The notes below the pieces were generated by a model that did not search any database, was not told the origin of the DNA, and saw only the letters and a list, made by a program, of their open reading frames with translations. A stretch of DNA of 64,000 nucleotides, taken from Vampirovibrionales bacterium (GTDB taxonomy: Bacteria > Cyanobacteriota > Vampirovibrionia > Vampirovibrionales > JAJTHC01). Both the position numbers and the translations under genes were made by a program. The stretch spans positions 145,224 through 209,223 of the forward strand of contig JBIIZQ010000001.1 of the NCBI GenBank assembly GCA_044346175.1, read 5' to 3'. This document shows, piece after piece, positions 7,771-55,113 of this stretch. Within the stretch, counting starts at the first letter, position 1. Every line of letters starts with the position of its first letter.

Positions 7771-7803
7771 GGAGAGATGGTGCGATGAGACTCGCTACAC
7801 TAC

Positions 7804-28240: not shown

Positions 28241-30232
28241 TTATTTGAAAAGAGGTAATGCCTGACGTAGGCGTGCATTTTCCTCTTCAAGGGATGTGAT
28301 ACGTTCCAGCAAAGAAGGTAAATCTTCAAGCCCTTCTTGGGTCTTTACCGTTTTTTCTTGCAAATTACGGGTTTGCTGATGCTGTTGCTGATATTTTTTC
28401 ACACTTGAGTAGAGGGTCAAGCTGGGCGAGTGGCGTAGGAGTCCTGTCACCATGGTACACGCACGCTCAACGAGTTCAATTTCAAATTCACGTTGCAAGT
28501 TTGCATCAACATGCCCTGTATAAGGGTGCATGACACGCTGGCGGATACTCTGATTGAGCAATAATTTATGGCGGAGAGGGTCGTCGGATAACTTAAGTTG
28601 TGGGTTATACCAACGCAGGGCTCCATGGAATACGGATAACTCTTTACCTAAAAGATTACTCAGAAGATACGTTACTTGAGGCTGAAGCACCACGACATGG
28701 GCAATCCCCAGGAGGTAATGATGGAGGAATTCTGGGTCGAGCAAGGGCGTGCGTGCATCACGGTCATAGGTCATCACTAACACGGGCAGGGTTCGTTCGG
28801 TAGACAATAAAAAGCGTTGAAATTGGTCAAACGCAATGTCATCGCCTACTATCCAAGGACTTGGACGAAAACGGACAACACCATCAAACAAACCTAACTC
28901 TTGAGAAAGTTGACGCAGGAAATGTGGCATTTGACGATGTTTTACAGGTGTCATATGCCCACCCTTGCACACATACTGACTCAAGCTCATCAAGACATGC
29001 GTACTCTCCTCTTCAATATGCTCGTCTAACACTACCTGTGTGACCCACTTTCGTTGAGGCACCTGAGCATCGTCTTGAATAAATTGTAACGCCCAATAGG
29101 GTGGCTCCATGATAGCTTCGCACTCTGAGCCGCCAAAAGCTGCGTAATTCACTTGAAAACTTTCGCCTTGGTACGCCACGGCAGGTAAACGACATTGTTG
29201 GTCACGTACCCACTGGAGGACTTTACTTTGGACGTTTTCAATAATCAATGCTTTATCTTCATGCTCTCGTCCCACTTCAACCAGTAAATTAAACACAGGC
29301 TGAATACTTGTGGCGGGGTTAGGCATCCCTGCTTGTCCAGACGGTGTTACCTGAGAAGCACCATAGGGACCAGACATGGCATGTGCTTCATGAGACGGAG
29401 AGGGAGGCATATAGCTCGATGCTTGATGCACAGGCGTATAGGCTCTGTGAGAAGAACGCTTGTCATAGTAAGTATTCCCACCACCATAGCCTTGAGGGTA
29501 TCCTTGAGCCGTGCCTGTATCATAAGAAGAGGAAGAAGGATAAGGACGATATCCTGATGCCCCATGGAATCCAGCATCAGAAGGTTGCCCGTCATGGGTC
29601 GTGTAGCCCGATAAACCCCCTAGCTCAGGGGTGGTTGTTTGGGGTGCGTTGCCGTGTGGTATATGGGTAGAACTATGATGATTGGCGGTATGGCGAGAGG
29701 TCTCTTGACGAGGGTTTTCTTGTGCATAAAAGTTAGCATCGGGCGGATACCCATTGCTTTCATAGCCATAATGATGCGTAGGCACTGGTGCTGGATAAGA
29801 TGCTCCTTGGTAGTTTGAGGGTTTTCCGTAACGTCCAGCAGAAGGGTGGGAGGCTGCCGTCTGCCCATAATGTCCTTTAGGGTGACGATGTCCATGTGCC
29901 TCGTAACCTTGATAGGATTGGGGTGCTGCTGTAGAGGCAAAGGCTGGTACGGTATTTTGGGTGCCTTGAGAGAAGTTAGCTTGATGCGTGTACTCAGTGT
30001 GGGCTGTATCGATAGAGGGGTAATGATACCGCTCTGTGTCAGCGTTTTCTTCTGGTAGGGTGGGTCGCCCTGTTGGATGTGTGTAAGGACGTGAGGTTCC
30101 TAAGGGCAGAAAATTAGACGAATAGTCAGAAACGTTATCCCCTGTCGTGTCGTGTTGACCAGATGTCATACCAGTATCCTGTGTTGCTTGTGATACTTGA
30201 GGATTCACAGTGGGGTCATAAGAAGAGGTCAT
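28241..30232 (-). CDS. Protein with a Y/G/S/P/H/Q-rich prion-like N-terminal half, a structured C-terminal half and a terminal coiled coil
   Basis: 663 aa. The C-terminal domain has no recognised motif. Ends LERITSLEEENARLRQAL. Confidence 0.45.
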   Translation of the reverse strand: MTSSYDPTVNPQVSQATQDTGMTSGQHDTTGDNVSDYSSNFLPLGTSRPYTHPTGRPTLPEENADTERYHYPSIDTAHTEYTHQANFSQGTQNTVPAFASTAAPQSYQGYEAHGHRHPKGHYGQTAASHPSAGRYGKPSNYQGASYPAPVPTHHYGYESNGYPPDANFYAQENPRQETSRHTANHHSSTHIPHGNAPQTTTPELGGLSGYTTHDGQPSDAGFHGASGYRPYPSSSSYDTGTAQGYPQGYGGGNTYYDKRSSHRAYTPVHQASSYMPPSPSHEAHAMSGPYGASQVTPSGQAGMPNPATSIQPVFNLLVEVGREHEDKALIIENVQSKVLQWVRDQQCRLPAVAYQGESFQVNYAAFGGSECEAIMEPPYWALQFIQDDAQVPQRKWVTQVVLDEHIEEESTHVLMSLSQYVCKGGHMTPVKHRQMPHFLRQLSQELGLFDGVVRFRPSPWIVGDDIAFDQFQRFLLSTERTLPVLVMTYDRDARTPLLDPEFLHHYLLGIAHVVVLQPQVTYLLSNLLGKELSVFHGALRWYNPQLKLSDDPLRHKLLLNQSIRQRVMHPYTGHVDANLQREFEIELVERACTMVTGLLRHSPSLTLYSSVKKYQQQHQQTRNLQEKTVKTQEGLEDLPSLLERITSLEEENARLRQALPLFK

Positions 30233-30561: not shown

Positions 30562-32181
30562 CTATTCAATAGCCTCAAGCATACTGCTAGCGGTCATGGC
30601 TTCAGGCACTGATAGTCCTAGTACGGTTAAGAGGGTTGGTGCCACATTTGCCAAGCTAAAACGAGGGTCGGCTTTAAACTTAAACTCGTTGCCAGCTTGT
30701 CCTACCATGATGAATGGCACAGGATTGATGGTATGTGCAGTGTGTTCACCTCCATTTTCATCGAACATTTGTTCAATGTTACCGTGGTCGGCACTGACAA
30801 AAAGCGTCCCATTCACAGCAAGCACCGCCTCGGAGACCTCTTTCAAAGCGGCATCAATCGCTTTCACAGCCTCAATCGCAGCGGGTAGTTTACCACAATG
30901 CCCTACCATATCAGGATTGGCGAAGTTACAAATCATGACATCATAACGACGCTCAAGAATAGCTTCAACCAGTTTGGCTTTTACCTCTGGTAAGCTCATA
31001 GCTGGCTGCATATCATAGGTAGCCACCTTGGGGGAATCAACCAACACACGGGTTTCGCCTTCAAAGCATGCTTCACGTCCGCCACTAAAGAAGTACGTCA
31101 CATGGGCGTATTTCTCAGTTTCAGCGATGCGTAGCTGGGTTAACCCTGCTTTTGAAATCACTTCAGGGAAGAAGTCCACGAGCGGTTCTTTAGGGAATGC
31201 GACGGGTTGGTTCTTTAATTGACTGCCGTAAGAGGTCATACACACAAAGTGAAGGTCTTTCAGGACTTTGGAACGCTCAAACCCATTAAAATCAGGGTCT
31301 ACAAAGGCAGTCGTAATTTCTCTGGCACGGTCAGGGCGGAAGTTAGCAAAAACGACAACATCGCCATCTTTCATGCCGTCGTAAGTCAGGTCTGTAATGG
31401 CGGGTAGTACAAACTCGTCTAACACGTCTTGTTCATAACTTAAATGTAGGGCATTTAACGATAAGAGGTGTCTGCGTCCGTAAGATTGCGCTGTCATGTT
31501 GCCTGAGTCTTCCAAGGCACTGGCTTGTTCGGCATCCATGACCATGGTTTCATACGCCATTTGGACTCTGTCCCAACGGTTGTCTCTATCCATGGCGTAG
31601 TAACGTCCGTGAATGGTGGCAATTTGAGGGAGGTCAAGGTCAAGGAGGGCTTCTTCAATTTTACGTAACGAGGCTTCAGCCGACTTAGGAGGCACGTCTC
31701 TGCCATCCAAAAACGCATGCACTGCCACCTTGCTGAGTCCTTGCTGATGAGCCATTTTTAAAAGGGCAACGATGTGGTCCTCATGGCTATGAACCCCACC
31801 AGGACTCGTAAGCCCCATGACGTGAAAGCACGTCCCTCGTTGTTTCGCAAGTGCCATGGCATCCAACAGAACTTGGTTTTTTTCAAATAAGCTTTCAGCA
31901 ATATGTTTGTTGATTTTAGTCAATTCTTGATAAAGCACCCGTCCTGCACCGAAGGTCATATGACCCACTTCCGAATTACCAATTTGTCCATCAGGTAAGC
32001 CCACGAAAGACTCTGAGGCTTGGATAGCCACATGAGGCTGTGTGGCAAGCAGATGTTTAAACCAGTCTGCTGGGGCTTGCTCAATGGCATTCCCTGAAAT
32101 GTCCTGCGAGGTGGATAACCCCCAACCATCTAAAATCAGCAATACTAAAGGGGTATGGTTTGCAGTGGTGGTGGTCATCAT
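30562..32181 (-). CDS. gpmI: 2,3-bisphosphoglycerate-independent phosphoglycerate mutase
   Basis: 539 aa with full-length iPGM pattern (LLILDGWG, metal-binding DHG, SADHGN). Confidence 0.85.
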   Translation of the reverse strand: MMTTTTANHTPLVLLILDGWGLSTSQDISGNAIEQAPADWFKHLLATQPHVAIQASESFVGLPDGQIGNSEVGHMTFGAGRVLYQELTKINKHIAESLFEKNQVLLDAMALAKQRGTCFHVMGLTSPGGVHSHEDHIVALLKMAHQQGLSKVAVHAFLDGRDVPPKSAEASLRKIEEALLDLDLPQIATIHGRYYAMDRDNRWDRVQMAYETMVMDAEQASALEDSGNMTAQSYGRRHLLSLNALHLSYEQDVLDEFVLPAITDLTYDGMKDGDVVVFANFRPDRAREITTAFVDPDFNGFERSKVLKDLHFVCMTSYGSQLKNQPVAFPKEPLVDFFPEVISKAGLTQLRIAETEKYAHVTYFFSGGREACFEGETRVLVDSPKVATYDMQPAMSLPEVKAKLVEAILERRYDVMICNFANPDMVGHCGKLPAAIEAVKAIDAALKEVSEAVLAVNGTLFVSADHGNIEQMFDENGGEHTAHTINPVPFIMVGQAGNEFKFKADPRFSLANVAPTLLTVLGLSVPEAMTASSMLEAIE

Positions 32182-32570
32182 GGTTTAAACAATCTCCTAG
32201 ATGGAAACGAAAGAGGATGCAACGGAGGGTGTTTCGTGTCGTTTGTTGTGATTGGGCAATAGATGCCTCAAGCTACGAGACGATTATAACTGTATACCCT
32301 ATATATAGGTGTAGCACACCCATCGAGTAGGGCGGGCAGGTGGTAAAAGGACAATGAACCCTCCACACGAGATACTACTATCAATGCCATAAAGACACGT
32401 TCTTGAAAAGCGAAAGTTTCGTTGTGACCTACGTTTGCTTGGTAACATTGAGCTTATCCTGATTTGATGATATTTTTAGTGTAAATCCCGCTTAAGTCGA
32501 TAATATGTTCCCAATTTTAAACAAAAAACTTTTAAAGTGAGTTAAAGAAATCGAAAGTTAGGTTGAGTTT

Positions 32571-35500
32571 ATGGTGCTATACGACAACAAAGACAATAAA
32601 GTATCCGATTTCTTGGAAATGTATTTGGAGGAGGGTGCTTCATTACGTTTAGTATCAGCTTATTTCACGGTGCAGGCTTTTTTTAAACTACGCAATAAAT
32701 TGAATGGATTGAAAGAGACTCGCTTCCTTTTCGGTGAACCTCGCTTCATTCAAAAGATAAACCAGAAAGAAACAGAGTATCAACCGTTTAAAATAGAGGG
32801 GGAATCAATTAAGCCCAGTTATGCTATCAAACAAAGTTTACTTGCTAAGGCTTGTAAGCAATGGATTGAGAAAGATAGTGTACATATTAAATCTGTGAAA
32901 CAATCAGGCTTGCTTCACGGGAAAATGTACTATGTAACGAGTAAAACGAATGCTACTCAGGCAATTATTGGTAGTTCTAACTTTACTGAGGCTGGTTTAG
33001 GGTTCTCTCAGTCACCTAACATAGAGCTTAATATGACCGTTGAAGACAGACGGGACTGTCACGACTTAGAAAAATGGTTTGATAGCCAGTGGTGCAGTGA
33101 TAATTTAGTAGAGGATGTGAAGGCAAAAGTTTTATATTATCTTGAACAGTTATATCAAAAAGTCTCTCCCAAAACACTCTATTACAAAACGCTATTTCAC
33201 CTTTTTGAAAGACACTTAGAAGACAATCAAAATGTGGAAGATGCCGAAGCTAAAACAAGACTTCCTGAGACGGTTATATGGCAAGCGTTATATGGATTTC
33301 AAAAACAGGCAGTTCGTTTGGCTTTAAGTAAATTAGAACATTATGGTGGATGTATTATAGCCGATAGTGTGGGTCTTGGTAAAACCTATGAGGCACTTGC
33401 GGTTATTAAGGCATTTGAAAATAAGAATAAAGAGGTTTTAGTGTTATGTCCTAAAAAGCTGGAACGTAACTGGAAACAGTTTATTGAAAAACGGGACACG
33501 AATCCGCTCCTGAAAGACCGTTTCTCTTATACGGTAAAACCACATTCCATTTTTTCAACGCAAGAGGAAACAGCCTTTGCTTGGAATCATTTTGAACTTA
33601 TTGTAATAGATGAATCACACCATTTTAGAAATGAAAGTGCCTCTCGCTTTCAGAAACTTTTGGATGTTATGAAAACCTCCAAGCCTAAAGTTTTGTTGCT
33701 ATCAGCAACGCCTGTTAACAATAATTTAAATGATTTGAAAAACCAATTACGGTTTATTGCTTCTGATGAAAGTCATCATTTTGATGATGATATTTTAGGA
33801 ATTTCAAACTTTAAAACCTTGTTGGATCATGCCCAAAGAGAATATAAGGCTTGGTATGATTCTAAAGGGTCTGATACCAGTAAGGTGAAAAACCTTCAGG
33901 AGTGCCTTCCTATAGACTACTTCAAGTTGTGTGATGAAATCATTATTGCACGTTCTCGTAAGCATATCGAAACCTTTTACAAAGAAGATTTGGAGAAGCT
34001 AGGTGCGTTTCCTCGAAGGCTTTCTAACCTTTCTTATAAGACATACCCATTAAAAATAGGAGACCCACTTTGTTATGAGGAGTTGGCAGAATGTTTTGAA
34101 GACCTAACGCTTGCCTCCTATAAACGAAGTGACTTTATTAAACCCGAGTATCGTGAGCGATACAGAGGTATGAATCATGACCAAATTGTTGGATTGTTGA
34201 AAATAGGGCTGTTTAAACGTTTGGAAAGCTCTGTTTCCTCTTTTGCATCAACCCTTACTCGTATGATTGAGCGTATTGAAAATATTCAAACAGGCTTAGA
34301 ACATGCTAAGTTTGACAGAGACATACTTGACATCAATGACCTGTTTATTGAAGATGATACGCTCCTTGATGCTATGGAGACCCATAAGTATGACAGAGAA
34401 GGTATACCACTTGAACATATTGATATAGACACATGGCAACAAAAGTTAAGAGCAGATAGAGAATTATTGGAAAGCATGTTTGGCTTAGTGCAAGATGCAC
34501 AAGGTCAAAATGATGGAAAATTAGAAAAGCTCAAAACCCATATTCAAGACAAGTTAAAGCAAAATAATCGTAAAGTCTTAGTCTTTACGCAATACTCAGA
34601 TACTGCCTCTTATCTGTACAAAGAGCTAAAAGAATTGTTGCCTCATGCTTCTTTAGGACTGGTTACAGGCACAGAGACTAAAGCAACTTGTGGTGCTGTT
34701 GATTTTGAAAGTATTTTAAGCAACTTTTCTCCTCGTTCTAAAAAAAGACTCACCCATCAAGAAATTGATATTCTGGTTGCAACAGATTGTATTTCTGAAG
34801 GTCAAAACTTGCAGGATTGTGACCAAGTGGTTAACTACGATATTCACTGGAATCCTGTTCGTCTTATCCAGCGTTTTGGACGAATTGACCGTTTGAATAG
34901 TCAAAATAAAGCCATTCAAATGGTTAATTTTTGGCCAACAGAGACCCTAGAAGATTATCTTAAGTTAGAAAGGCGTATTTCTGGAAAGTCTGAGCTTGCG
35001 AACTTAAGCACCTCAGGGAACGATAATGTTTTAAGTGATGAAAGTGTTGAATATGATTACCGTAAGAAGCAATTTGAAATTATTGAGGACGAGTCAGGTC
35101 ATCTGGAAAATGTCATGAAAGATGACTTAGATTTTTCTTCACACTCTTTCAATGACTTTATCACTGAGTTGTTACAATTTTTAGGCACGCAAAAAGAAGC
35201 CCTTAGGAAAATGCCACTGGGGTTACACGCTATTGTTGAATCAGAAACTCAAGCATCTCTTGGTACGATTTTTTGTTTGAAACAAACTGTGAATACGAAG
35301 CGTAACAAGCATGTGAACGCTTTTAACCCGTACTACCTCATTTACGTTACTGAAAAAGGTATACAGGGTACCTCTATAAAAACCAGAGCTGAAGCATTTG
35401 AGACTCTAAACCTTTACAGACAACTATGTAAGGATAAACATCGTCCTAATGAGGAGCTTTCAAAGTGGTTTGATGAAAGGCTTGAGAATCAGAATAATGA

Positions 35501-35669
35501 CTTTGATAACCTCTTGAAAAGAGCCATTGCTTCGCTTTCTTCTGATTATAAACATCAAGTAGAAAAACTTATTGACAATTTTGATATTGAGTTACCTCAA
35601 TTTAATGAGAATGAAGCCGTTACAGATGAATCAAGTTTAGAGCTAGTCACATGGTTAATTATACGTTAG
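32571..35669 (+). CDS. PLD-family nuclease domain fused to an SNF2-family helicase
   Basis: 1032 aa. N-terminal HxK..GSxN motif (LHGKMYYV...IIGSSNFT). SNF2 motifs: [23 protein letters not shown], helicase-C [12 protein letters not shown]. The gene is AT-rich. Confidence 0.8.
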
Positions 35670-37525
35670 ATAAGCCATATATTCCTGTACCTCTTAAGCC
35701 ATTACAGCTTAAGAGGAAGCGTAGTTTTTCTGAGATGTATCATCCTTTACCGATACACCCTCAAAATAAACTACAGGAGCTTTTTCGTACGTTGATTTGT
35801 GATGCGAAAGCAGAAGATGCTTTGGCATGCTTTGAGCATCTAGGGTGGGATATTTCTCAACGTTTAGAGGGTATCGGCTATGAGAGTCCGTACGCTTTTG
35901 TAGAGAGTCGACCTCAGGGTGCAAGGTTTGATAAAGAAAAGGCATTATTCTGGCAATGGCATAAAGTTCAGTTACTTTTTAGGTCGCATTATAGCCCTAA
36001 GCGGTCTTCGGGTTTTATTGTTTTAATGGTTCAAATGGATTCTTCTGAAGAAGATAAAAACTATAAGGTCATTTCTCACGAAATCGCTAAATGCTATAAA
36101 TGTTCTGTTTTAATTCTCTATGTGGTAGCGGATAAAACATTATATATTCAGCATGTGGAAAAGCGACCAAGTAAAGATACTAGCTCTAGAGAAGTCATAA
36201 AGGATAGTTTCTTTAAACAAGTGAGGCTTGATGACTTGTATCTCAGCAAAACATTAGACTGGTTAGAAGGCTTTTCATTAGAAACGCTCAATCATGTCGT
36301 TCAAGTGAGTCGAACGTTGAAAAGTTATCCTGTTGAAACGGCTACAGGTGATGACCCATGGGTAAATGGCGTATTAAAAGAGGATGAGCAACAGCATGCT
36401 TCCATGATGCAAAAAAGTGATAACGACTCTGAAGAAGAAGATGACTCTGATGAACCTAAAAGAAAAGATAATAATGACTATGTGAGAATGTATCTTCGTG
36501 AGATTGGACGTATCAAGCTGTTGAACGCTACTGAAGAAATCGAGCTAGCAAAGCAAATAGTAGAGGATGAGTCTTTGGGTGCAACAGCCAAGGAAAAGTT
36601 TGTAAAGGCGAACTTACGCCTTGTTGTAAGTATCGCTAAAAAGTATCTGGGGCGTGGTTTAGAATTTCTTGACCTTATTCAAGAAGGTAACTTAGGACTC
36701 ATTCTTGCTACTGAAAAGTTTGACTACGCCCGTGGATACAAGTTTTCAACCTATGCCACTTGGTGGATTCGTCAAGCAATTACTCGTGCTATTGCCGACA
36801 AAGCACGAGTGATTCGTCTTCCTGTCCATATGGTTGAAACAATTAAAAAACTTAAAAAAATTGAGAGTAAGCTTGAACAAGCACTCAGCCGTAAGCCTGA
36901 TGAGGAAGAGCTTGCCAAGCACATGGGTATCAGTATTAGCAAGCTACGTGAAATTATTCAAGTAGCACAGGAACCCAAATCATTAGACCAGCCTGTAGGC
37001 AAAGAAGAAGGAAGCTGTTTGATTGACTCTATTGAAGATAGCAATGCCGCACGCCCTTTTAAAGATATGGCAGATACACTGCGAAAAGTAATCCTAAACC
37101 ATTTATTTGAATCTCAGCTTTTACCCAGAGAACAAGAGGTATTACGCTTACGTTTTGGCTTAGGTGATAATCGTGAGCGTACCTTAGAAGAAGTGGGGCA
37201 GTTGTTTGGCTTGACTCGTGAGCGTATTCGTCAAGTTGAAGCAAAAGCTTTGAGCAAATTACAGGGGAACTCCGCAAAGAGAGAGATGTTGATGTCTTTG
37301 AAGCATCTTGTTGAAGCAGATAATCTATCAACCATTCGACAGCTTGAAATAATGGAGTCGATAAGCTTTGAAAACTTTAGAGCGATTTTTATCAAAGCAG
37401 AAGCCCAATTCTTGCGTACCGAGCAAGTGAATAGCATCTTAGGGATGTGTCGCCGTATTTGGGTTTTAAAGATGAAAGTATCTCCTCGTTATAAGGCTTA
37501 CTTCAAGAGGAAAGGTCTGCCATGA
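35651..37525 (+). CDS. Sigma-70 regions 1.2-4.2 module embedded in a fusion protein: ~250-aa novel N-domain, sigma module, ~90-aa C-extension
   Basis: 624 aa. Residues ~277-535 are ~80% identical to the rpoD at 52222..53331 ([25 protein letters not shown]...[13 protein letters not shown]). The start ATG lies inside the last codons of the PLD-SNF2 gene (19-nt overlap). A possible internal start is MMQKSD at ~36401. The last 20 nt come from the dcm-derived repeat. Confidence 0.75.
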
Positions 37526-37612
37526 TTTTATCAGCAAGGGCTTTGCCTAAGGCTACGGGTACGGCATTGCCTACCATTTTGTAACCTACGGCAACATCTT
37601 TGTAGTGAAAAA
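37506..37612 (-). pseudogene. Exact 107-bp inverted copy of the 3' end of dcm (residues ~296-331), a fragment only
   Basis: The reverse complement of 37506-37612 is identical to 61069-61175. The track's 74-aa ORF 37503..37727 ends [35 protein letters not shown], identical to Dcm. Confidence 0.85.
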
Positions 37613-37682
37613 ACAAAAAACTATGACGAGGAGAAGCTAGCATTGTAAACAAACCATCCAAAACTGACGAGACATAACACGC

Positions 37683-38645
37683 TTGAGCGAAAGGCAACCA
37701 TGCCACTATACTAAAACAGTATACCATGAGCCATGCTTGAACCTGTGCTTAAGACATGCTGCTATCTTTTCCTCATACCCCAATGTAAGGTACCCTTCTC
37801 ACGTGATGAATGCCCCCCCACCCCCTCTTAATACAACCCATACTGCTGTGGTGTTTGGTGCCTCAAGCGGCTTAGGACAAGCCTCCGCAGAAGCCCTTGC
37901 CCTAGAAGGCTACCACGTTGTGACCGTTGCACGACGGGAAGAAGCCCTTACGGAACAAGCAGAGACCTTCAAAGCCACCTACCCCACCTGCCATGGTACG
38001 CTTCTCCCTTTGGCTTGGGATTTAAACGATAGTACGCAATGGGATGCGCTACCCCCACGTGTGGCTGACCTTTTAGGGCATCATCTCGGTTGTCCTACGC
38101 CTGTTTATCCTGCCGTGGTACTCCATAACAGTGGCGGTCCTGCCGTGGGGCATGCACGTAGTTTTTCTACAGCTACTTGGGAAGAAACCTTCAAACAACA
38201 ATGTTTACGTGTCATTGCACTGGATGCCCACTTCATACCCGCCATGGTGGCTCAAGGGTATGGTCGATGGTTGGCTATTACCTCGGTTGCCGTGGCACAG
38301 CCCGTCCCTCACCTTGCTCTTAGTAATGCAAGCCGTGCAGGACTCACGGGCTACATGAAAAGTCTTGCTCATGAGCTTGCACCTCAGGGTATTACGGTGA
38401 ATGCTATTGCCCCAGGCTTGTTTGGCACAAGCCGTTTAACCCATCTTTTTGAAACCCAAGCTCAGGCTCAAGGACTTTCACCAGAAGCCTATCAAGCCAG
38501 CCAGACCCAACACATCCCTATGCAAAGACTTGGCACACCCAAAGAATTTGCCCATGCTGTGACGTTTTTAGCTTCCCCTTTGGCGAGCTACATCACAGGA
38601 ACCACCTTACACATTGATGGTGGACTCCACAAAGGGCTTCTGTAA
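37683..38645 (+). CDS. Short-chain dehydrogenase/reductase (SDR)
   Basis: Rossmann motif VVFGASSGLGQA. The likely real start is MNAPPPP at ~37809. Confidence 0.7.
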   Translation: MSERQPCHYTKTVYHEPCLNLCLRHAAIFSSYPNVRYPSHVMNAPPPPLNTTHTAVVFGASSGLGQASAEALALEGYHVVTVARREEALTEQAETFKATYPTCHGTLLPLAWDLNDSTQWDALPPRVADLLGHHLGCPTPVYPAVVLHNSGGPAVGHARSFSTATWEETFKQQCLRVIALDAHFIPAMVAQGYGRWLAITSVAVAQPVPHLALSNASRAGLTGYMKSLAHELAPQGITVNAIAPGLFGTSRLTHLFETQAQAQGLSPEAYQASQTQHIPMQRLGTPKEFAHAVTFLASPLASYITGTTLHIDGGLHKGLL

Positions 38646-38727: not shown

Positions 38728-40419
38728 GTGGAGCCTCTTTCAATGTCTATGTACCATTCAATATCCCAGGTTTCTGACCCTTCAATAGTAAAACCGTTGG
38801 CATCTAAAAATAGGAATCAATACGTAGGGCGAAAATTGCCCCTTGTCTGCTTTAATGATGTTTATGATGTGAACCGAATGGCTCAGTTCACCACGGTCCT
38901 TAAAGGATTTTTAAAGCGCTACCCCAATGCAGTAGGCTTATTTGGAGGTGATGTACTCTCTCCGAGTGTAGAGTCTAGAGCGACGAAGGGGTTACACATG
39001 ATTGATGGTTTGAACTATGTTGCCCAACTATTCAAAGGACGGTTCGTAGCTGTGCCTGGAAATCATGAATTTGATTTCGGGTTTTCTAATTTTTCCACAG
39101 CTTTAAAGAAGAGTCGTTTTTCATGGGTGCTTGCCAATGTGGTCACTGATGCTAGTACAAAAAAAGTACTGCCTCCATACGTCGTACTCAATCACCAAGG
39201 TATGAAAACGCTTGTTTACGGATTGACTTTAAAAGAAAATTACGCAAACTTACCAGAACACTTCCAAATAAAAGACCCTTTTGCGCAAGCACATCAAGAA
39301 CTTACGGAACTGCGGAAGCGCATACGTCCTGATGCGACCATTTTATTGGCACACTTGGGAGAGCATACCTACAACGACATCGCCAAGCTTCCTATTGATG
39401 TCGCTATTGTGGGACATGACCACAACCGAAAGCTGTTGACAAAAAACGGCATTAAAATCATACGAGCAGATGCCGATTTAGAGACCTTTGCAGCTTTAAC
39501 ACTACAAATGAAAAAACAACGTCCATTATGGCGGCGTATGATAGCTTTGATGCATGACACGATTTACAATCGTCTTCCTTCTTCTCGTGTAGAGCGTATA
39601 GAGCATCAATTCATTCAGGTATCTCCTCATACAGAACTTGATAAAGGCTTAATGAATCGTATTGACCCTAAAGTTTCTGAAGAGGTACATCGTTTACAGG
39701 AAAGTCTTTTTCAGGCGAAAGAGCCGCTTGATGTCCGTGCAAATAAAATTAGAGGATTTGAATCCCCTATAAGTAATTTATTGACAGATGCTTTTAGGGC
39801 AGGTTGGAATGATGAGCATCCTGATAAACCTGTTGATATGGCTTTGATTCATGCAGGAAATATTCGAGGAGATAAAATTATTCCACCAAAAGAACAGGGG
39901 TTCACCTTAAGAAACTTTTATGAAGTCTTACCTTTTCGTAACCCTGCTTTCCGTATAGAAATGTCAGGTTCTATGCTCCAATCTATATTGGAGCATTCGT
40001 TAGCGCATATTGCAAAGGGGGAGATTCCCAACAAGCATGCGGGGTCGTTTATAACCTTTAGTGGTATACGTGTGGAAGCAGATTTGACAAAGCCTTATGG
40101 AAAACGTATTTTACAAGTTACAACATTAAATGGGAAACCATTAGAAGCCACCAAAACGTATGCTATAGTCATGGATTCTTTTATTCTTCAAAAAGATGCT
40201 GGTTTCCCTATGCTACATGAATATGCCAACCAACATCCAAACAGCGTCTATAAGGATTCAAAGAGTAATTCAGACTATATTAAGTCTTGGCTATTGAAAC
40301 AAAAAAAGGAGGGTATTTCAAATAAACCTACTCTGGACGGACGCTTGCAAAAGACATCGCAGGTTCATCTTGCACATCGATGGTGGACACCACAAAAGGC
40401 TTCTATTAAGGTGTCCTGA
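38728..40419 (+). CDS. Bifunctional metallophosphatase/5'-nucleotidase family protein
   Basis: Calcineurin-like motifs GDVLS, GNHEFD and GHDH, plus the 5'-nucleotidase C-terminal domain pattern. Confidence 0.7.
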   Translation: MEPLSMSMYHSISQVSDPSIVKPLASKNRNQYVGRKLPLVCFNDVYDVNRMAQFTTVLKGFLKRYPNAVGLFGGDVLSPSVESRATKGLHMIDGLNYVAQLFKGRFVAVPGNHEFDFGFSNFSTALKKSRFSWVLANVVTDASTKKVLPPYVVLNHQGMKTLVYGLTLKENYANLPEHFQIKDPFAQAHQELTELRKRIRPDATILLAHLGEHTYNDIAKLPIDVAIVGHDHNRKLLTKNGIKIIRADADLETFAALTLQMKKQRPLWRRMIALMHDTIYNRLPSSRVERIEHQFIQVSPHTELDKGLMNRIDPKVSEEVHRLQESLFQAKEPLDVRANKIRGFESPISNLLTDAFRAGWNDEHPDKPVDMALIHAGNIRGDKIIPPKEQGFTLRNFYEVLPFRNPAFRIEMSGSMLQSILEHSLAHIAKGEIPNKHAGSFITFSGIRVEADLTKPYGKRILQVTTLNGKPLEATKTYAIVMDSFILQKDAGFPMLHEYANQHPNSVYKDSKSNSDYIKSWLLKQKKEGISNKPTLDGRLQKTSQVHLAHRWWTPQKASIKVS

Positions 40420-48219: not shown

Positions 48220-51200
48220 ATGAAAGTTTTGTATACTCTTACTAAAGTGGTAACTCACACAACGAGTGGTTCCAGTAGGCGGTTTAAAATCGTAAGTGTC
48301 TCTTTACTCATGATGTTTGCATCTTTTCCTTCAACATCCCATGAAGCCTCTCACGCAGTAGGTACTTCGGGTCATGGCTTACAAGCAGTCCCCTTTGAAG
48401 TGGCTTTGGAACGTGTCAAAAGTAGTTTGAACCTCTTAGAGGTTGTAGGACGTAAGGTTGCCTTAAAAAAGCATGGACGTAACTATCTGGGCTTATGTCC
48501 TTTCCATCAGGAAAAAACGCCTTCCTTCAATGTCAGTGAAACAAAGGGGATGTTTAAGTGCTTTGGATGTGGCGCAGGGGGCGATGCCCTCAAGTTTTTA
48601 ATGGAGACTGAGCAACTCAGCTTCCCTGAACTCATTGAGCAAGAAGCCAAAGCTCTTGGCTTAGTCATTGTACGGGATGCTCAAGCCTCACGAGAAGCCA
48701 AAGCACGCCGTACTGAGGAAGACCGTTTACTTGAGCTGTTGCAAACCATCCAACACTATTACCAACAATGGCTCCTTACGCCTGCTACAGGTCAAGAAAC
48801 CCAACGTTACTTACAACAAGAACGTCTGTTTCCTGAAGCCATTTGGCGACGGTTTGGCCTTGGTCTTGCTCTGCAAGCTTGGGAGAATCTTTACCCCACC
48901 TTGGAAAAGCACTTGAAAACCCAAGTGACCAATGCTACAGAGTATCAAGCCCAAAAAACACACCTTTTTGAAGACCTTCAACATCTTGGGTTTCTGGTGT
49001 CTCGTCCTGACAACAAGGGGCATTATGACCGTTTTCGACATCGACTGATGATACCTATCCACAACGCCAAAGGACAGGTTGTCGCTTTTGGGGGTCGGGT
49101 ACTGCACGCTCAGGACACCCCTAAGTACATGAACAGTCCTGAACATATCTTGTATCAAAAGAGCGATACACTCTATGCACTCCACTTGGCTAAAAAAGCG
49201 ATTCATGAGACCCAAGAAGCTTGTATCGTTGAAGGCTACTTTGATGTGATGCGACTCCACCAGTTTGGTTGGCATCATACCGTGGCGACCTGTGGCACGG
49301 CATTTACGGAAGGACATTTAAGAATTCTCCAGCAGCAAGGGGTCAAACGAATCTACTTAGCCTTTGACAGTGACAAAGCAGGGCAGAAAGCAACGTTAAG
49401 TGCACTATCCTTGCTAGCCGAAACCTCTATCGATGTATGGGTATTACAGTACCCTGAAAAAGATGCCGATGCTTGGCTAGCACCCTACCAAGACCATCCT
49501 ACACAGGCACAAAGTATGCTTGCACAATGGAAAACACAAGCACTGAGTCCTACGATGTTTCGATGCCAGCAAGCTTTAAAGCACTTTCTTCATGAACAGT
49601 TAAATCACCCGCCAGACGACACATCCGAGCGTCTCAACGCTTGGCTTTCAGGAACATGGCAACCTGTATTGAGTATGTCGAATGTCATGACTTTGGGAAG
49701 ACTACTTATCCCACTCATGGCAAGTTGTTCTCCTATTGAAAGTGCTTTACTTGCCAAACAATACGCCCCTCTTTTGGGGGTTACGCCCGAGGTTTTTCAG
49801 CAAGAACTCTCTTTGTATCGTCAACATGCAAAAGTTCAAGGTGCCTCGGAGGAACGAGGTGGGCTTGAACGCACTCACACCACGAAAGCCACCTCAAAAA
49901 ACGCATCGCATAGTCCTCAAAGCGATATGTCTCGTAGAACCTCTCACAGTAGACAGGGGGCTTCCTCCCAGTATTCAAACCAGTACTCAAAATCTTATTC
50001 AGAGACAACACCTGATGCAGATGGTTATTCAGAGGACTATTCAGAGAGCTATTCAAACACAAAGGTGCATCTCTCGGATTCAGGTTTTGGAGGGAGTGCT
50101 TATGCTTATGAGCCTGCTTTGAGGCATACCATGCGTCAAAGCAAAGATACCAACACACAGCCTATGATGGCGTATCCAACAAAAGCAAGACCCTACGCTA
50201 AAAAGCCTTTGAAAGGCACTCAATTTAAGTCTCCTAGTAAAAAAGGAGGGTTAAAGTCAGACCAGCTCATCATGCAGGATGAAACTCCCATGGCACCGCC
50301 CATCCATGATGCCCTTTCTCGTGAAACCGAGCGTTACAAGACCCTAGAGGTGTATTTGTTTCTCCTGTGGTGGGTTGTGAGTGGTCAGGCACGCTTGGCG
50401 GTATGGCAAGTGGTTCAGGAAACGATTTGGCCTCAACTTGACCCCGATAGTACCTTATACAAATTATGGCATTTGTTAAACCAATGGTTTGAAAGTGCCA
50501 TGCTCCAACAAGAACACCTTACCCAGCAAGATTGTCTTGATATTTTAGTCCCTCTTTTAAAGGACAAGCCCGCTCTGCAACGTCAAACCTTGCACCTCCT
50601 CCAACAGATTCCAAAACTCACTTCGAGCCTTCCTTGGATTGACCCTCTTCGAGAACCCCATGGACAGGACCCCGCGCTCCTTAATCGCTTCTACCATATT
50701 CTTATGGAATGGCAACTTGAGTGGAAACGTCTCCAAGTGCGTCATGTCCTTCGAGAGAAAAATAAAGAACTCTATCAGCTGGAACAGCATACCAACAGTG
50801 TGCAAAAGCCTCATCCCCTCCCTGTGCATGACGACGAGGCCTATGCTCTACCTCATACCTTACCTATGGTTGAGACCCTCTACCAAGGGGATATCCCACT
50901 GTATGACGTTCCAAATGATGCTCCAAATGCCTCTCCTGCCTCTATACACACAGAGGCACCAGCGGTCACCCTTCATCCTACTTTTACGTCTCCCTCACTA
51001 GCGAGCAACAATCCTCATCTTTCCCTCACACAGGAACACCCACCCCATCAGGAAACGCCTCATCAGGAAACGATGGTCTCCTCATCAAACCTTAAAACCA
51101 AACCAGCCCCCGCTCAATCTCAAGCACATATTGCCTTACACCAAGATTTTCGTCAGACGCTTAAGGCTTCCGACAGTTACCGTTTAAAATCGAGCCAAGG

Positions 51201-51819
51201 GTTTGGCTCCGCTTTAGGTCGTCCGTTGACTTTACCTGTCTCTAGCGCATCTGGTATGTCTCCTTCTGGTATTGTTACACAAGCTTTACCCGTGCCTGCT
51301 ACGACCCTAGCGGAGCATCAGCATATCCCACACGACCCAAACACTGTGATGGATTCAATACCGTCTGCTTCAACCCATATTACACAGCATCTTTATATTG
51401 CCAATCAAATGTTGGTACAACATCATGAAGCATCTGTCCCTGTCATTTATACGCCTGTGCAACCTGTCACGCCCTCTGAAACACCAGAAACCTCTCCTAC
51501 CTCCTCTGTGTCCCCTCCGCCCTTGCTTTCTTCTCAGGAACCTGATGCCATGTTGACGATACCTCCAGAGCCACCCTGTAATTGGATTTTAGATGAAACA
51601 CCCCCTAAAGGGTCTCTTCCTTCGCCTTCAATACCCTCCCCTTATGTGCCTTCCTCTCAAATGCCCTCTACCCAAGTGCCCTCTACCCAAGTGCCCTATC
51701 ATGCAGGACTCTTTCCGTCCCAACCCTCTCATCAGGATACAGAAGACACCCTTGTGAATCCTTTTTCTGATATTCCTATGCCTGCCACCTTCAACCCCGA
51801 AGCCTTGAGATTTTCCTAG
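48220..51819 (+). CDS. dnaG: DNA primase DnaG with a ~600-aa low-complexity C-terminal extension
   Basis: Zn ribbon CPFH...CFGCG, TOPRIM domain (EGYFDVM, DSDKAGQKA). Then an S/P/Q/T-rich tail containing one conserved-looking helical segment (LEVYLFLLWWV...). The probable start is MMF at ~48310. Confidence 0.85.
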   Translation: MKVLYTLTKVVTHTTSGSSRRFKIVSVSLLMMFASFPSTSHEASHAVGTSGHGLQAVPFEVALERVKSSLNLLEVVGRKVALKKHGRNYLGLCPFHQEKTPSFNVSETKGMFKCFGCGAGGDALKFLMETEQLSFPELIEQEAKALGLVIVRDAQASREAKARRTEEDRLLELLQTIQHYYQQWLLTPATGQETQRYLQQERLFPEAIWRRFGLGLALQAWENLYPTLEKHLKTQVTNATEYQAQKTHLFEDLQHLGFLVSRPDNKGHYDRFRHRLMIPIHNAKGQVVAFGGRVLHAQDTPKYMNSPEHILYQKSDTLYALHLAKKAIHETQEACIVEGYFDVMRLHQFGWHHTVATCGTAFTEGHLRILQQQGVKRIYLAFDSDKAGQKATLSALSLLAETSIDVWVLQYPEKDADAWLAPYQDHPTQAQSMLAQWKTQALSPTMFRCQQALKHFLHEQLNHPPDDTSERLNAWLSGTWQPVLSMSNVMTLGRLLIPLMASCSPIESALLAKQYAPLLGVTPEVFQQELSLYRQHAKVQGASEERGGLERTHTTKATSKNASHSPQSDMSRRTSHSRQGASSQYSNQYSKSYSETTPDADGYSEDYSESYSNTKVHLSDSGFGGSAYAYEPALRHTMRQSKDTNTQPMMAYPTKARPYAKKPLKGTQFKSPSKKGGLKSDQLIMQDETPMAPPIHDALSRETERYKTLEVYLFLLWWVVSGQARLAVWQVVQETIWPQLDPDSTLYKLWHLLNQWFESAMLQQEHLTQQDCLDILVPLLKDKPALQRQTLHLLQQIPKLTSSLPWIDPLREPHGQDPALLNRFYHILMEWQLEWKRLQVRHVLREKNKELYQLEQHTNSVQKPHPLPVHDDEAYALPHTLPMVETLYQGDIPLYDVPNDAPNASPASIHTEAPAVTLHPTFTSPSLASNNPHLSLTQEHPPHQETPHQETMVSSSNLKTKPAPAQSQAHIALHQDFRQTLKASDSYRLKSSQGFGSALGRPLTLPVSSASGMSPSGIVTQALPVPATTLAEHQHIPHDPNTVMDSIPSASTHITQHLYIANQMLVQHHEASVPVIYTPVQPVTPSETPETSPTSSVSPPPLLSSQEPDAMLTIPPEPPCNWILDETPPKGSLPSPSIPSPYVPSSQMPSTQVPSTQVPYHAGLFPSQPSHQDTEDTLVNPFSDIPMPATFNPEALRFS

Positions 51820-52221: not shown

Positions 52222-53331
52222 ATGATGATAACCCGTCGCCGTAGTTCAGGTGCCTTTACCGATGTGCTTGAAAAAGAGCAGGATACCGAGGTGGCTGAAG
52301 CCTATGAGGAAGACACCCTTGATGAACCAACCCCCGTTGTTGCTGAAGCTACTACCTTTTACACACGTGCCAAAAGCATTGCTGATTTAGACCATCTGGA
52401 ACCCACGGATGATGAGCTTTTTGAAGAATCAATTGATGAAGAAGCTCCTGGTGCAGCTCCTGAACTGAGTGCCGCCGAACTTCGGGGTATTTCCAGCATT
52501 GATGACCCCGTAAGAATGTATCTTCGTGAGATTGGACGCATCAAGCTGTTGAACGCCACTGAAGAAATCGAGCTTGCCAAACAGATTGCTGCGGGTGGTG
52601 CTTTAGGTGCAAGAGCCAAACAAAAGCTCGTGCAAGCTAACTTGCGTCTTGTCGTAAGTATTGCCAAGAAGTACGTAGGGCGTGGCTTGTTATTTCTTGA
52701 CCTCATTCAAGAAGGCAACTTGGGGCTGATTCGTGCAAGTGAAAAGTTTGACTATGCCCGTGGGTACAAGTTTTCAACCTATGCCACTTGGTGGATTCGT
52801 CAAGCAATCACCCGTGCCATTGCAGACCAAGCACGTACCATCCGTATTCCTGTCCACATGGTGGAAACTATCAACAAACTCAAGAAAGTAACACGTAAGC
52901 TGGCTCAAGAACTCAGTCGTAAACCGAATGAGGAAGAACTTGCCAAGCACATGGGTATCAGCATTAGCAAGCTACGTGAAATTATCAAAGTCGCTCAGGA
53001 GCCGCTTTCATTGGAAACCCCTATTGGCAAAGAGGAAGATAGCCGTTTGGGTGACTTCATTGAAGACCGAGATGCTGAAGCACCTGCCATTACCGTGGCA
53101 CACGAGTTGCTTCGTGAAGACCTCACCGAGGTATTAAGCTCCCTTTCCCCTCGTGAGCGGGACGTACTACGGTTACGTTTCGGTTTGGATGATGGTCGTC
53201 AACGTACCCTTGAGGAAGTAGGTCAGTTATTCGGGGTGACTCGTGAGCGTATCCGTCAGATTGAAGCCAAAGCCCTTCGTAAACTTCGGCACCCGAACCG
53301 TAGCCGTCGTTTACGGGAGTACGTTGAATAG
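52222..53331 (+). CDS. rpoD: Primary RNA polymerase sigma factor (SigA/RpoD type)
   Basis: 369 aa. Acidic N-terminal region, then regions 1.2-4.2 with near-identity to Bacillus-type SigA ([43 protein letters not shown]). Sits immediately downstream of dnaG. Confidence 0.9.
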
Positions 53332-53808: not shown

Positions 53809-55113
53809 TTGTGTTTCCCCCTAACAAGACTTTTTTCGATTGATTGTGTTGATTCTAAGAGAGGGAGTTTAATAAACCCTATGATGAGCAGTATTTCCCA
53901 AGCGATTACAATTAACGGTGTTTCTGGACCTGTTAGTGCTGTTAATGCAGCCAATACAGCGGCTGTCAATGCGTCTGCCAATGGGAGCGGTGCTTCAGTG
54001 AGTGCTTCGCCACCACCCACGACTTTACCCAACACGCCACCACCTCCACCTGTCAATGTGAATGTGCCTCCCCCACCCGTTGGCTTACCAGCCCCTCCTT
54101 TACCAACAGCACCTTTATCGTTAAGCACAAACATTATTCTTGGGCAGCAACCCCCACCACCACCAACGCCATTACCCTCCTTGAGTAACACCATCAATAT
54201 TTATCAAAATCAGACATCCTCAACGCCTCAGGTACAGATTCTTAACCAGCCAGGAATACCCAATCATAGCATTCCTCCTGTGCCACCTTCCGTTAACCAG
54301 AGTGTACAAGGGATGGGTACCAACATTAACATCAATGGTGGTCCTAACGCCATTACCATTTCTCAGAATGGGCAACCCATTGGAAATGTCAATCAAGGAA
54401 CCTTCATGCCTTTAGCTCCGAATGGGATGATGCCTCCCAACGGGATGCCGAATATGCCTCCTAGACCTGGGTTTTATCCTAATATGCCTCCCAACGGCAT
54501 GATGCCCCCGAATGGTATGCCCAACATGCCTCCCAATGGCATGCCAAACATGCCCTCAGGGTTTAATCCAGCACTGAATAACCCAGCCCTTGCACAGGCT
54601 CAGGCACAGGCAGCGGCTCAAGCGGCTCTAGGGCAGAACCCCTATGGTGCCATGCCTTCACAAGCTGGACTTCCTGAAGGCATGCCTCCTTGGTTACCTC
54701 AATTACTGCAACAATTAGGCGTAGGGGGTCAGCCTCCCACCCCACCTAATCAGGGGATGTCTCAGATGATGCCCTTCATGCTCATGATGATGATGCAAAT
54801 GATGAAGGCAAAACAAGATGACGGTGGCGACAAAAAAGATGAGATGGCTGTTAAAAACAGAATGGCTCTCATCAATGCCCTTAGTACAGGAAACCATCGT
54901 CCTGCTCGGGCCGATGTTCGTAGAGAGTTACCTCCTATGCCCCCTGAACCACGCCGTATGCCACCCAGAAGAGAAGATGATGAGCCACCCGTTTCACGTG
55001 CTTCCGCCCGTGCATCAGGTACCACTTTTGCATCTTTGTTTGATAATGGCCCATCCGCTTCATCTGCCAAAGCGAACGCTTCTGCAAAAGCAAAAACACA
55101 AGTAAAGCGTTAG
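53809..55113 (+). CDS. P/M/N-rich low-complexity protein with PNGMPNMP peptide repeats and a poly-Met segment
   Basis: 434 aa with the repeats NGMMPPNGMPNMPP and FMLMMMMQMMKAKQ. Confidence 0.5.
   Translation: MCFPLTRLFSIDCVDSKRGSLINPMMSSISQAITINGVSGPVSAVNAANTAAVNASANGSGASVSASPPPTTLPNTPPPPPVNVNVPPPPVGLPAPPLPTAPLSLSTNIILGQQPPPPPTPLPSLSNTINIYQNQTSSTPQVQILNQPGIPNHSIPPVPPSVNQSVQGMGTNININGGPNAITISQNGQPIGNVNQGTFMPLAPNGMMPPNGMPNMPPRPGFYPNMPPNGMMPPNGMPNMPPNGMPNMPSGFNPALNNPALAQAQAQAAAQAALGQNPYGAMPSQAGLPEGMPPWLPQLLQQLGVGGQPPTPPNQGMSQMMPFMLMMMMQMMKAKQDDGGDKKDEMAVKNRMALINALSTGNHRPARADVRRELPPMPPEPRRMPPRREDDEPPVSRASARASGTTFASLFDNGPSASSAKANASAKAKTQVKR

Follow-up and report, generated by a model that had tools for sequence, protein, structure and literature searches.

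Introduction

Proteins that join a PLD(HKD) domain to an SNF2 motor (HKD-SNF2) are known from cassettes in which they occur with a DUF4391 protein and an N6-adenine methyltransferase (Shah 2019), and which carry the label C3a139, a cluster delimited by its association with type III CRISPR loci (PMC6546367). Such HKD-SNF2/DUF4391/methyltransferase cassettes resemble the DrmD-DrmMI pair of class 1 DISARM. A sigma factor within a defence system also has a precedent in mzaA, which is described as a sigma factor of the validated mzaABCDE system (Gao et al. 2020, as represented in PMC9523054). Here we describe a low-GC, two-gene island in a 64,000-nucleotide stretch of a Vampirovibrionales genome (contig JBIIZQ010000001.1, positions 145,224 to 209,223; hereafter the window), in which an HKD-SNF2 gene is followed by a gene whose product joins a DUF4391-like domain to a primary-type sigma factor. 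The sigma module has a specific nucleotide kinship with the host's own rpoD, and fusions of this kind recur behind homologous helicases elsewhere. Cassettes of the methylase type, like DUF4391 and the family of the helicase, were already known; as far as our searches show, the replacement of a methylase by a sigma factor, its recurrence and the nucleotide tie to the host rpoD are new. Literature searches (HKD/SNF2 with sigma, DUF4391, Mza) did not turn up any account of a sigma factor joined to the partner of an HKD-SNF2 protein.

Results

A helicase-nuclease and its partner protein

The first gene of the island encodes a protein with the Pfam domains PLDc_2, SNF2-rel_dom and Helicase_C, whose motifs are intact (HGK...GSSNFT of the HKD domain, the Walker A motif GLGKT, the DExH motif DESHH and the arginine finger). 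The PADLOC profile C3a139, 'HKD+Snf2', matches it over its full length (7.4e-92, residues 6-1002 on profile positions 7-928 of 948), and a partial match to DrmD was also obtained (2e-42). More than 8000 homologues were found at 40-42% identity, and the closest, P0131, is 69% identical (L and P numbers are our designations for loci and proteins). The fusion gene begins inside the helicase gene (Table 1), an overlap implying, from the gene coordinates, that the two are translationally coupled. The identical 19-nucleotide overlap is present in L001, L002, L084, L087 (start taken at 5006) and the methylase-type locus L094.

The N-terminal domain of the fusion protein (N-domain) has no direct Pfam match. 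Poribacteria, Deltaproteobacteria and Ardenticatenaceae encode, after the same helicase, an Eco57I-type methyltransferase whose first ~200 residues are homologous to the N-domain, and comparison of the N-domain with the N-terminus of the Eco57I-type methylase by hhalign gave a probability of 99% (E 5e-18). Three sampled plasmids, from Bacillus, Leuconostoc and Acinetobacter, carry the helicase, then a stand-alone DUF4391 protein, a methyltransferase and a DEAD-box helicase; the cassette on the B. cereus plasmid adjoins DrmA and DrmB. Across a sample of 50 viral-contig loci, DUF4391 follows the helicase in ~40, a fusion of N-domain and methylase in one, and a sigma factor in none.

The link between the N-domain and DUF4391 is one of remote homology, and it is by this homology that a DUF4391-type module is recognized downstream of the window helicase. 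Pfam gave a sub-threshold match on the N-terminus of the L094 methylase (E 0.0025, below the curated cut-off), and profile-profile comparison with hhalign gave an E of 1e-3 at a probability of 20%. Two proteins that stand in the DUF4391 position on viral contigs, in L101 (8222-9010; 2e-4) and L104 (8201-8959; 3e-5), match the N-domain hidden Markov model as well as that of DUF4391 and, to judge by these matches, bridge the DUF4391 family and the N-domain family of the sigma and methylase fusions. By their domain content, the partners of the helicase fall into three types. A DUF4391 protein may stand alone, accompanied by a separately encoded methyltransferase; the same adaptor domain may be joined to a methyltransferase of the Eco57I type with a specificity module; or, rarely, the adaptor is joined to a sigma factor.

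AlphaFold2 produced an alpha/beta model of the N-domain with a predicted local distance difference test score (pLDDT) of 83.5 from a five-sequence alignment and of 44 from the single sequence. A Foldseek search of this model against PDB returned nothing significant. Its best match, the Hjc resolvase (E 0.07), gives a weak hint that the modelled fold may be nuclease-like, with no catalytic motif. A profile search of PDB sequences with the N-domain gave no match, and no conserved catalytic motif was seen in the N-domain alignments, judged by eye.

Sigma fusions recur behind the helicase

A word-index search and a metagenome scan with the single N-domain sequence found no relatives, and an exhaustive phmmer search with the same query against 1.84 billion representatives was needed. 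It yielded five other clusters, with proteins of 516-600 amino acids that all carry a C-terminal sigma module; one of these clusters is represented by a 314-residue fragment, its full-length member (P0127) having 600 residues. Every fusion found in this way directly follows an HKD-SNF2 gene, and the partner of the helicase homologue closest to that of the window stands in the same position (L087/L088). The helicase-fusion pair is kept in the window and in nine other contexts, metagenomic or genomic, among them L001, L002, GCA_041442895, L003, L084-86, L087/88, L089 and L093; the more distant cassettes come from a Gastranaerophilales metagenome-assembled genome (L089; GCA_028696075.1) and from Microcoleus vaginatus (L093; GCA_014695175.1). 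The neighbours in other loci include Gabija-like OLD-TOPRIM and UvrD genes, type III restriction-modification genes, an Eco57I methylase with an SMC-like ATPase, and HigB and PemK toxins, which are typical defence-island surroundings.

A neighbour-joining (NJ) tree of the helicases shows the sigma-type cassettes to be polyphyletic. One clade (clade A) unites the helicases of the window, L001, L084 and L087 and the partner of P0125 with 100% bootstrap, and the Microcoleus cassette groups with the methylase-type cassettes, also at 100%. Methylase N-domains are 41-49% identical to those of the Microcoleus fusion and P0126, the N-domains of other sigma fusions 18-34%. This pattern in trees and identities indicates that sigma fusions arose repeatedly.

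The sigma module of the Microcoleus fusion is of the cyanobacterial SigA type, scoring 289 bits against cyanobacterial SigA in PDB, compared with at most 249 bits for the others; it is 70% identical to cyanobacterial SigA vs 61-63% to Melainabacteria RpoD and has DGETPED and PVHL as motifs in common with the former. In the window, by contrast, the module belongs to the Melainabacteria type. Both fusion members with a named host thus carry the primary sigma type of their own host's group.

Turnover of the module can be seen between L084 and L087, which share 93-99% nucleotide identity over the helicase and the N-domain and then 52-82% from the linker through the sigma module, an abrupt drop that indicates a module swap or conversion. 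At about position 3909 of L084, in comparison with L087 and L001, a sharp, recombination-like breakpoint lies at the boundary of N-domain and linker. The L084 module also has a long insertion, of the order of 40-60 amino acids, between regions 1.2 and 2.1.

Other members vary in layout. L003 has an N-domain-sigma fusion (3708-5282) followed by an N-domain-Eco57I methylase (5279-9130), the two N-domains being 48% identical, with an SMC-like ATPase and PemK after them; this locus may be an intermediate in the replacement of methylase by sigma, or a three-part system. The true open reading frame of the L093 fusion is 9297-12122 (941 amino acids), and the public gene call, starting at 9867, misses the N-domain. 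This protein extends for ~450 residues after the sigma module, and that of L089 for a shorter stretch of ~100. The 80-residue tail of the window fusion has no detected homologue, is absent from the closest cassette relatives and has a GC content at third codon positions (GC3) of 0.425; an antisense open reading frame (37059-37331, minus strand) runs across its start. The tail looks like read-through into a former 3' flank after loss of an ancestral stop codon.

The sigma module is closest to the rpoD of its host lineage

The first-pass annotation of this DNA had recognized the homology between the island and rpoD, and had placed it correctly at 36479-37256 (residues 277-535 of the 624-residue frame) and 52510-53287 (residues 97-355 of the 369-residue RpoD); nucleotide homology begins only at about 36470. 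BLASTP of the island protein against RpoD gives 74% identity over 272 amino acids (E 5e-131). The likeness is real, and in the codon alignment it amounts to 76.4% of amino acids and 75.5% of nucleotides over 774 nucleotides, compared with the ~80% and 85-90% given earlier, the latter being an overestimate. The 190 nucleotide differences fall mostly at third codon positions (111), followed by first (44) and second (35). Synonymous third-position differences pair G/C in rpoD with A/T in the island in 45 cases, show the opposite in 18 and are of other kinds in 10, and GC3 is 0.34-0.345 in the island copy vs 0.43-0.45 in rpoD. The described tendency toward A/T is thus borne out as a bias; as a direction of drift it cannot be polarized, because all outgroups are saturated at synonymous sites. 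The proposed amelioration toward A/T is likewise not demonstrable, the GC3 of the module (0.345) matching that of the rest of the island (0.32-0.33). The pairwise alignment gives, by the Nei-Gojobori method, 1.13 synonymous (dS) and 0.16 nonsynonymous (dN) substitutions per site and a dN/dS of 0.14; with a dS of about 1.1 and a nucleotide identity of 75.5%, the module is not the recent paralogue it had been taken for.

The host RpoD, a Melainabacteria RpoD, shares 91% of its residues with the protein from an uncultured member of Vampirovibrionales and 85-86% with those of Gastranaerophilales, and Firmicutes SigA is also 72-75% identical to it over the conserved part, so that protein identity by itself is no proof of specific kinship. 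The amino acid identity of the island module declines along a gradient, from 77% with the host protein through 73% with Vampirovibrionales and 72% with Gastranaerophilales down to 67% with Firmicutes and 65% with cyanobacterial SigA. Synonymous sites were then compared at codons with a shared amino acid, among the island copy (I), the host rpoD (H) and each of nine Melainabacteria rpoD orthologues (V) with GC3 from 0.16 to 0.62. Sites at which island and host agree against the orthologue (I=H≠V) number 43-64, compared with 15-26 for I=V≠H and 15-27 for H=V≠I, an excess of 2-3 fold that holds for orthologues of any GC3. The proportion of synonymous differences (pS) is 0.59 between island and rpoD, 0.74-0.92 between rpoD and the nine orthologues, and 0.78-0.93 between the island and the same nine. 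Identical codons are used at 115 of the 196 identical degenerate amino acid positions, when 67-75 would be expected from host and island codon usage; none of 20,000 codon-usage simulations attained 115, the maximum being 96. Island and host copies also have residues in common at which both differ from the nine-sequence consensus of Melainabacteria RpoD (KQ in ELAKQI, GRGL, FDYARG, AKHMGIS), and the same residues occur in some individual Melainabacteria RpoDs too.

The island module and the host rpoD are therefore mutual closest relatives at synonymous sites among the nine sampled Melainabacteria orthologues. Taken together, the identity gradient, the pS and third-position results and the codon-usage simulations place their common nucleotide ancestor after the host's split from any sampled relative. 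Since that ancestor the two copies have evolved at very different rates: a relative-rate test counts 52-62 unique amino acid changes on the island branch vs 0-4 on the rpoD branch, which makes amino acid evolution of the island module more than 15-fold faster. The fraction of identical codons is 0.59 between island and host rpoD, 0.50-0.54 between the island and the clade-A fusions, and 0.45-0.46 between those fusions and the host rpoD, against a baseline of 0.30-0.40. These fractions agree with an origin of the modules in the family of this host, the copy in the window being the latest to be derived or re-converted.

The top database match to the sigma module, P0001 (486 bits), was considered as a closer relative and rejected, its score being inflated by regions 1.2-3 that are present twice. 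P0001 is a metagenome protein of 434 amino acids on a 2245-bp contig, a Gastranaerophilales-type RpoD with tandem regions 1.2-3 and an out-of-frame end; the duplication is probably an assembly artefact.

Core- and promoter-binding residues are retained, the sigma finger is not

Residues 276-538 of the fusion match the Pfam families Sigma70_r1_2 (1e-11), r2 (3.5e-23), r3 (4e-21) and r4 (3e-15). Residues are numbered on E. coli sigma-70, with the reference sequence checked at landmark residues. The window copy agrees with E. coli sigma-70 and the host RpoD at L402, D403, Q406, E407, N409, Y425, Y430, W433, W434, Q437, T440, R441, R451, H455, E458, R584, E585, R586, R588 and Q589. Across nine fusions, three sets of residues are invariant or nearly so: D403, Q406, E407 and N409, which bind the core in region 2.2; Y430, W433, W434, Q437, R441 and R451, which melt and recognize the -10 element; and R584, E585, R586, R588 and Q589, which contact the -35 element. 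Most fusions also have K446 and L452 in common, and most have replaced the T of RpoD at position 449, by varying residues.

Identity to the Melainabacteria RpoD consensus is 71-78% in regions 2.1-2.4 and 4.2, and 31-39% in regions 3.0-3.2. The sigma finger is not conserved across the fusions, and in the window copy it carries D516G, H518C, G520I and F522S. Region 4.1 has diverged, and the listed DNA-contact residues of regions 2.4 and 4.2 are unchanged in the window copy, with surface changes in region 4.2 (R596S, R599Q, H600G). This residue pattern and the dN/dS of 0.14 indicate probable selection for binding of the RNA polymerase (RNAP) core and of housekeeping-type promoters, not for efficient initiation. 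The earlier expectation that the copy keeps its affinity for the core is supported by the retained core-binding, -10 and -35 residues, and its suggested roles as decoy, competitor or targeting subunit would be reasonable ideas on the same grounds.

Genomic setting of the island

The island has a GC content of 0.32-0.42 across 32.4-37.7 kb vs about 0.46-0.50 in its flanks, and is bounded by the iPGM gene (30562..32181, minus strand) on one side and a short-chain dehydrogenase (SDR) gene (37683..38645, plus strand) on the other. It had been read as a mobile element, for which we found no support: no tRNA, integrase, att-like or flanking direct repeats mark it as such. Promoter and terminator scans of the island region gave background levels only. 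The flanking genes are housekeeping ones (iPGM, SDR, 5'-nucleotidase, grpE, dnaJ), with the exception of a gene matching the PADLOC candidate family HEC-07. This gene (28241-30232, minus strand) encodes 663 amino acids without a Pfam domain and matches HEC-07 at residues 305-651 (2e-55); the iPGM gene lies between it and the island, and its GC content is host-normal (0.48). The second gene after the island, a 5'-nucleotidase/metallophosphatase gene (38728-40419, plus strand), has an island-like GC of 0.41 and GC3 of 0.35, below its neighbours; it may be foreign, or a sign of low neutral GC3 in this genome.

The rpoD and the island fusion gene lie 15 kb apart in the same orientation. The dnaG-rpoD order is a classical gene arrangement, and the gene at 52222..53331 is identified as the primary sigma gene because it lies downstream of dnaG in this arrangement. 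The upstream gene is presumably dnaG, named from the motifs in its translated sequence; its reading frame has a C-terminal extension of at least 600 amino acids past the primase part, of low complexity and with a high content of Ser, Pro, Thr and Gln. At 51-52 kb the GC skew takes strongly negative values. Directly after rpoD, two long open reading frames (53809-55113 and 55290-57422, both plus strand) encode repetitive proteins rich in Pro, Asn, Gln and Met, with repeats of the PNGMPNMPP type.

Table 1 Features of the island and of the rpoD locus (positions in the window)
Feature	Position	Strand	Basis
Low-GC two-gene island	32400..37700	.	Composition profiles
PLD(HKD)-SNF2 helicase-nuclease, 1032 amino acids	32571..35669	+	Translation, Pfam, PADLOC
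Gene overlap, 19 nucleotides (helicase 3' end / fusion gene start)	35651..35669	+	Reading-frame coordinates
Fusion protein gene, 624 amino acids: N-domain, acidic linker, sigma-70 regions 1.2-4, 80-residue tail	35651..37525	+	
N-domain, putative DUF4391-like alpha/beta adaptor, residues about 28-215	35732..36295	+	phmmer, hhalign, AlphaFold2
Linker with acidic tract, in place of sigma region 1.1	36296..36472	+	Translation, alignment
Sigma module, residues 275-545, regions 1.2, 2.1-2.4, 3.0-3.2, 4.1-4.2	36473..37285	+	Pfam, rpoD homology
C-terminal 80-residue extension past the usual sigma end	37286..37525	+	Alignment
dnaG primase (presumed), 1199 amino acids, upstream of rpoD	48220..51819	+	Primase zinc-finger and Toprim motifs in translation
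Housekeeping rpoD, 369 amino acids	52222..53331	+	Pfam; island-homologous block 52501..53328

Discussion

A proposed restriction-like cassette with a sigma factor as targeting module

The explanation that we favour, with a probability of roughly 0.5, is that the island is a restriction- or defence-type coupled cassette in which a sigma module derived from the host-lineage rpoD replaces the methylase as the targeting module. The first gene encodes a PLD(HKD)-SNF2 translocase-nuclease, and the second a partner that combines a DUF4391-like adaptor with an acidic linker and a primary-type sigma. Across the sigma variants, the module for DNA recognition and modification would have given way to the principal sigma of the group to which the host belongs. 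In the window, the sigma module would have come from the rpoD of this host lineage, either through gene conversion or ectopic recombination with the host copy, which lies 15 kb off, or by capture in a close relative of lower GC. It would then have diverged to a dS of about 1.1, with nearly all amino acid change on the island branch. The earlier proposal that an element had captured a host sigma gene thus keeps its core, the specific kinship with rpoD, and loses the idea of a one-off capture by a mobile element, the sigma being a module of a recurrent, helicase-paired fusion.

Such a sigma module would dock the cassette on the RNAP core, through regions 2.2 and 4, and on housekeeping-type promoters, through their -10 and -35 elements. 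Through the adaptor domain, the HKD-SNF2 motor-nuclease would then be recruited to complexes that initiate transcription, such as those on phage or plasmid DNA that enters the cell and relies on the host sigma at its early promoters. To judge by the degenerate sigma finger, such a complex may be made for binding and not for productive transcription. By analogy with the methylase-type cassettes, the partner would provide target recognition, and the HKD-SNF2 protein translocation and cleavage, a division of labour drawn from the domain content and from what is known of Type I, ISP and DISARM systems. We infer the defence role by association, from the Gabija, restriction-modification and toxin neighbours in other loci and from the CRISPR-associated cluster to which the helicase belongs; docking on RNAP and triggering of the nuclease are likewise putative.

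Several observations weigh against this explanation. The NJ protein tree of the sigma modules groups the fusions together in 65% of bootstraps and the window copy with the host RpoD in only 23%, so the phylogeny of the two copies is undecided; the indecision is probably due to long branches, and, because the protein phylogeny is ambiguous, the replacement by host rpoD rests on the synonymous-site evidence. Codon-level runs tests for clustering of identical codons are not significant (p = 0.11 and 0.30). A three-way nucleotide runs test against the clade-A fusions gives p = 0.0002-0.017, with a more fusion-like C-terminus, in an alignment that contains indels; the evidence for gene conversion is mixed and we do not claim defined tracts. 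The conserved DNA-contact residues could equally be surfaces bound by other proteins. The window cassette stands alone amid housekeeping genes, the HEC-07-like gene 2 kb off being the sole nearby defence-like match. The sigma-fusion variant is also rare, with only six clusters at 50% identity among the representatives covered by the single-sequence search. Finally, a cassette without a methyltransferase leaves the discrimination between self and non-self unexplained.

We also advance, tentatively and as somewhat unlikely, a broader idea: a hitherto undescribed class of modification-independent immunity in which a nuclease-translocase is steered by a periodically refreshed copy of the host's principal sigma, either by riding RNAP to the promoters on which invading DNA depends or as a decoy for phage anti-sigma proteins. 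If a sigma factor guides or arms the nuclease, the system would be restriction-like and would read its target through the transcription machinery, not through DNA methylation. That would be a new self/non-self logic, with a core gene of the host repeatedly recruited into an immune operon, and the repeated sigma-for-methylase swaps in Cyanobacteria and Melainabacteria would represent convergent exchange between target-recognition devices. It predicts that the sigma module of each fusion matches the principal sigma of its own host. For genome annotation, the source databases label the fusions 'RNA polymerase primary sigma factor', and such labels mislead both annotation and counts of sigma factors in Melainabacteria and Cyanobacteria.

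Alternative origins and functions

As to origin, the module may instead come from the rpoD of a closely related Melainabacterium of lower GC, with later transfer of the whole cassette. Because the GC3 of the module equals that of the island, this stays a live alternative to conversion within the genome, and we rate it as quite plausible, though short of even odds. The module's value (0.345) fits the rest of the island (0.32-0.33) and not rpoD (0.43), the entire 5.3-kb block is compositionally foreign, and the raised codon identity of the other clade-A modules to the host rpoD (0.45-0.46 over a baseline of 0.30-0.40) suggests a shared source at family level. Yet the codon identity of island and host (0.59) exceeds both that of the island with the clade-A fusions (0.50-0.54) and that of those fusions with the host, and no sampled orthologue is equally close. 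The 15-kb spacing and common orientation of the two genes permit ectopic conversion, and some host genes have a GC3 of about 0.35-0.39, so that a lower neutral GC3 is possible.

As to function, the main rival is an integrated decoy, or guard, in which the sigma mimic binds phage proteins that inhibit or appropriate sigma and a signal through the adaptor switches on the HKD-SNF2 nuclease. A mimic requires a module of the host group's primary-sigma type that is renewed from it, as in the two members with a named host. Regions 4 and 2, which are the usual targets of phage anti-sigma proteins such as T4 AsiA, are the best conserved, and a decoy works without a methylase. Against this, the -10 and -35 contacts do not vary even where a member's identity to RpoD is as low as 45-57%, which a pure bait would not obviously need, the window copy's R596S, R599Q and H600G and its 52-62 unique changes erode the mimicry, and no phage partner is known; we consider the decoy unlikely.

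The two remaining functional rivals are weaker. The fusion could be an ordinary alternative sigma of the group 2 kind, with an N-terminal regulatory domain, a regulon of its own and a merely regulatory link to the helicase. It does contain all sigma regions and the promoter-recognition residues of a primary sigma, and the database label points the same way, but housekeeping specificity residues imply no distinct regulon, and the family does not conserve the finger and regions 3.0-3.2, on which efficient initiation depends. The invariable coupling to an HKD-SNF2 gene, often by the 19-nucleotide overlap, and an N-domain that is otherwise the N-terminus of a restriction-type methylase make this reading improbable. 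A fusion that blocks transcription, its finger-defective sigma occupying the RNAP core and sigma-70-type promoters in an abortive infection sensed by the helicase-nuclease, would agree with the altered finger (D516G, H518C, G520I, F522S; unconserved in the family) and the conserved core- and promoter-binding residues; it is more doubtful still, the helicase-nuclease of related cassettes carrying the obvious effector (the HKD nuclease) and the partner the recognition, with nothing that points to sensing by the helicase. That the likeness reflects only the protein constraint and shared codon usage of any two primary-type sigmas in one genome is very improbable. In its favour, 76% protein identity proves little beside the 72-75% between Firmicutes SigA and the host RpoD, but the codon simulations (0 of 20,000), the pS of 0.59 vs at least 0.74 and the 2-3 fold I=H≠V excess reject it, and the two copies share off-consensus residues, found in some individual RpoDs too.

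Comparison with known systems

With primary (group 1) sigma-70 factors such as the host RpoD, the fusion has in common regions 1.2, 2, 3 and 4, the core, -10 and -35 residues and 75-77% amino acid identity. Unlike RpoD, it has a DUF4391-like domain and an acidic linker instead of a region 1.1-like segment, as well as the 80-residue tail, and it lies outside the dnaG-rpoD locus, coupled to a nuclease-helicase. The region 1.1-type N-terminus, the dnaG-rpoD locus and the slow evolution of a principal sigma are thus all absent from it.

MzaA offers a sigma-70-type protein inside an anti-phage system, as is suggested here for the window fusion. The fusion was itself considered as an MzaA and rejected: the PADLOC MzaA profile matches only its sigma part, at profile positions 429-659 (2e-57), with nothing over the N-terminal 428 positions, the housekeeping RpoD scores better (6e-65), and no MzaB-E is found among the neighbours. 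RapA (HepA) is a bacterial SNF2 ATPase that binds RNAP. This RNAP-associated SNF2 motor invites comparison with the window helicase, one plasmid homologue of which is annotated 'rapA'. RapA lacks a nuclease domain and makes direct contact with RNAP, whereas the link of the window helicase to RNAP would be indirect, through its sigma-fused partner, and we do not claim orthology.

The island does not belong to class 1 DISARM, as it has only the partial DrmD-type match and no DrmA, DrmB or DrmMI nearby. Among the systems close to it are the C3a139 cassettes, with which it shares a homologous, full-length HKD-SNF2 protein and, by remote homology, a DUF4391-type module directly downstream, often overlapping; the sigma-fusion relatives of the window also share the defence-island neighbourhoods of C3a139-type cassettes. 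No methyltransferase domain is present in the fusion or the flanking genes, which sets the island apart from C3a139 as defined. Unlike those cassettes, the window has no methyltransferase, specificity domain, second helicase or DrmA/DrmB/DrmC, and it is a sigma factor that takes the place of the methylase part of the partner.

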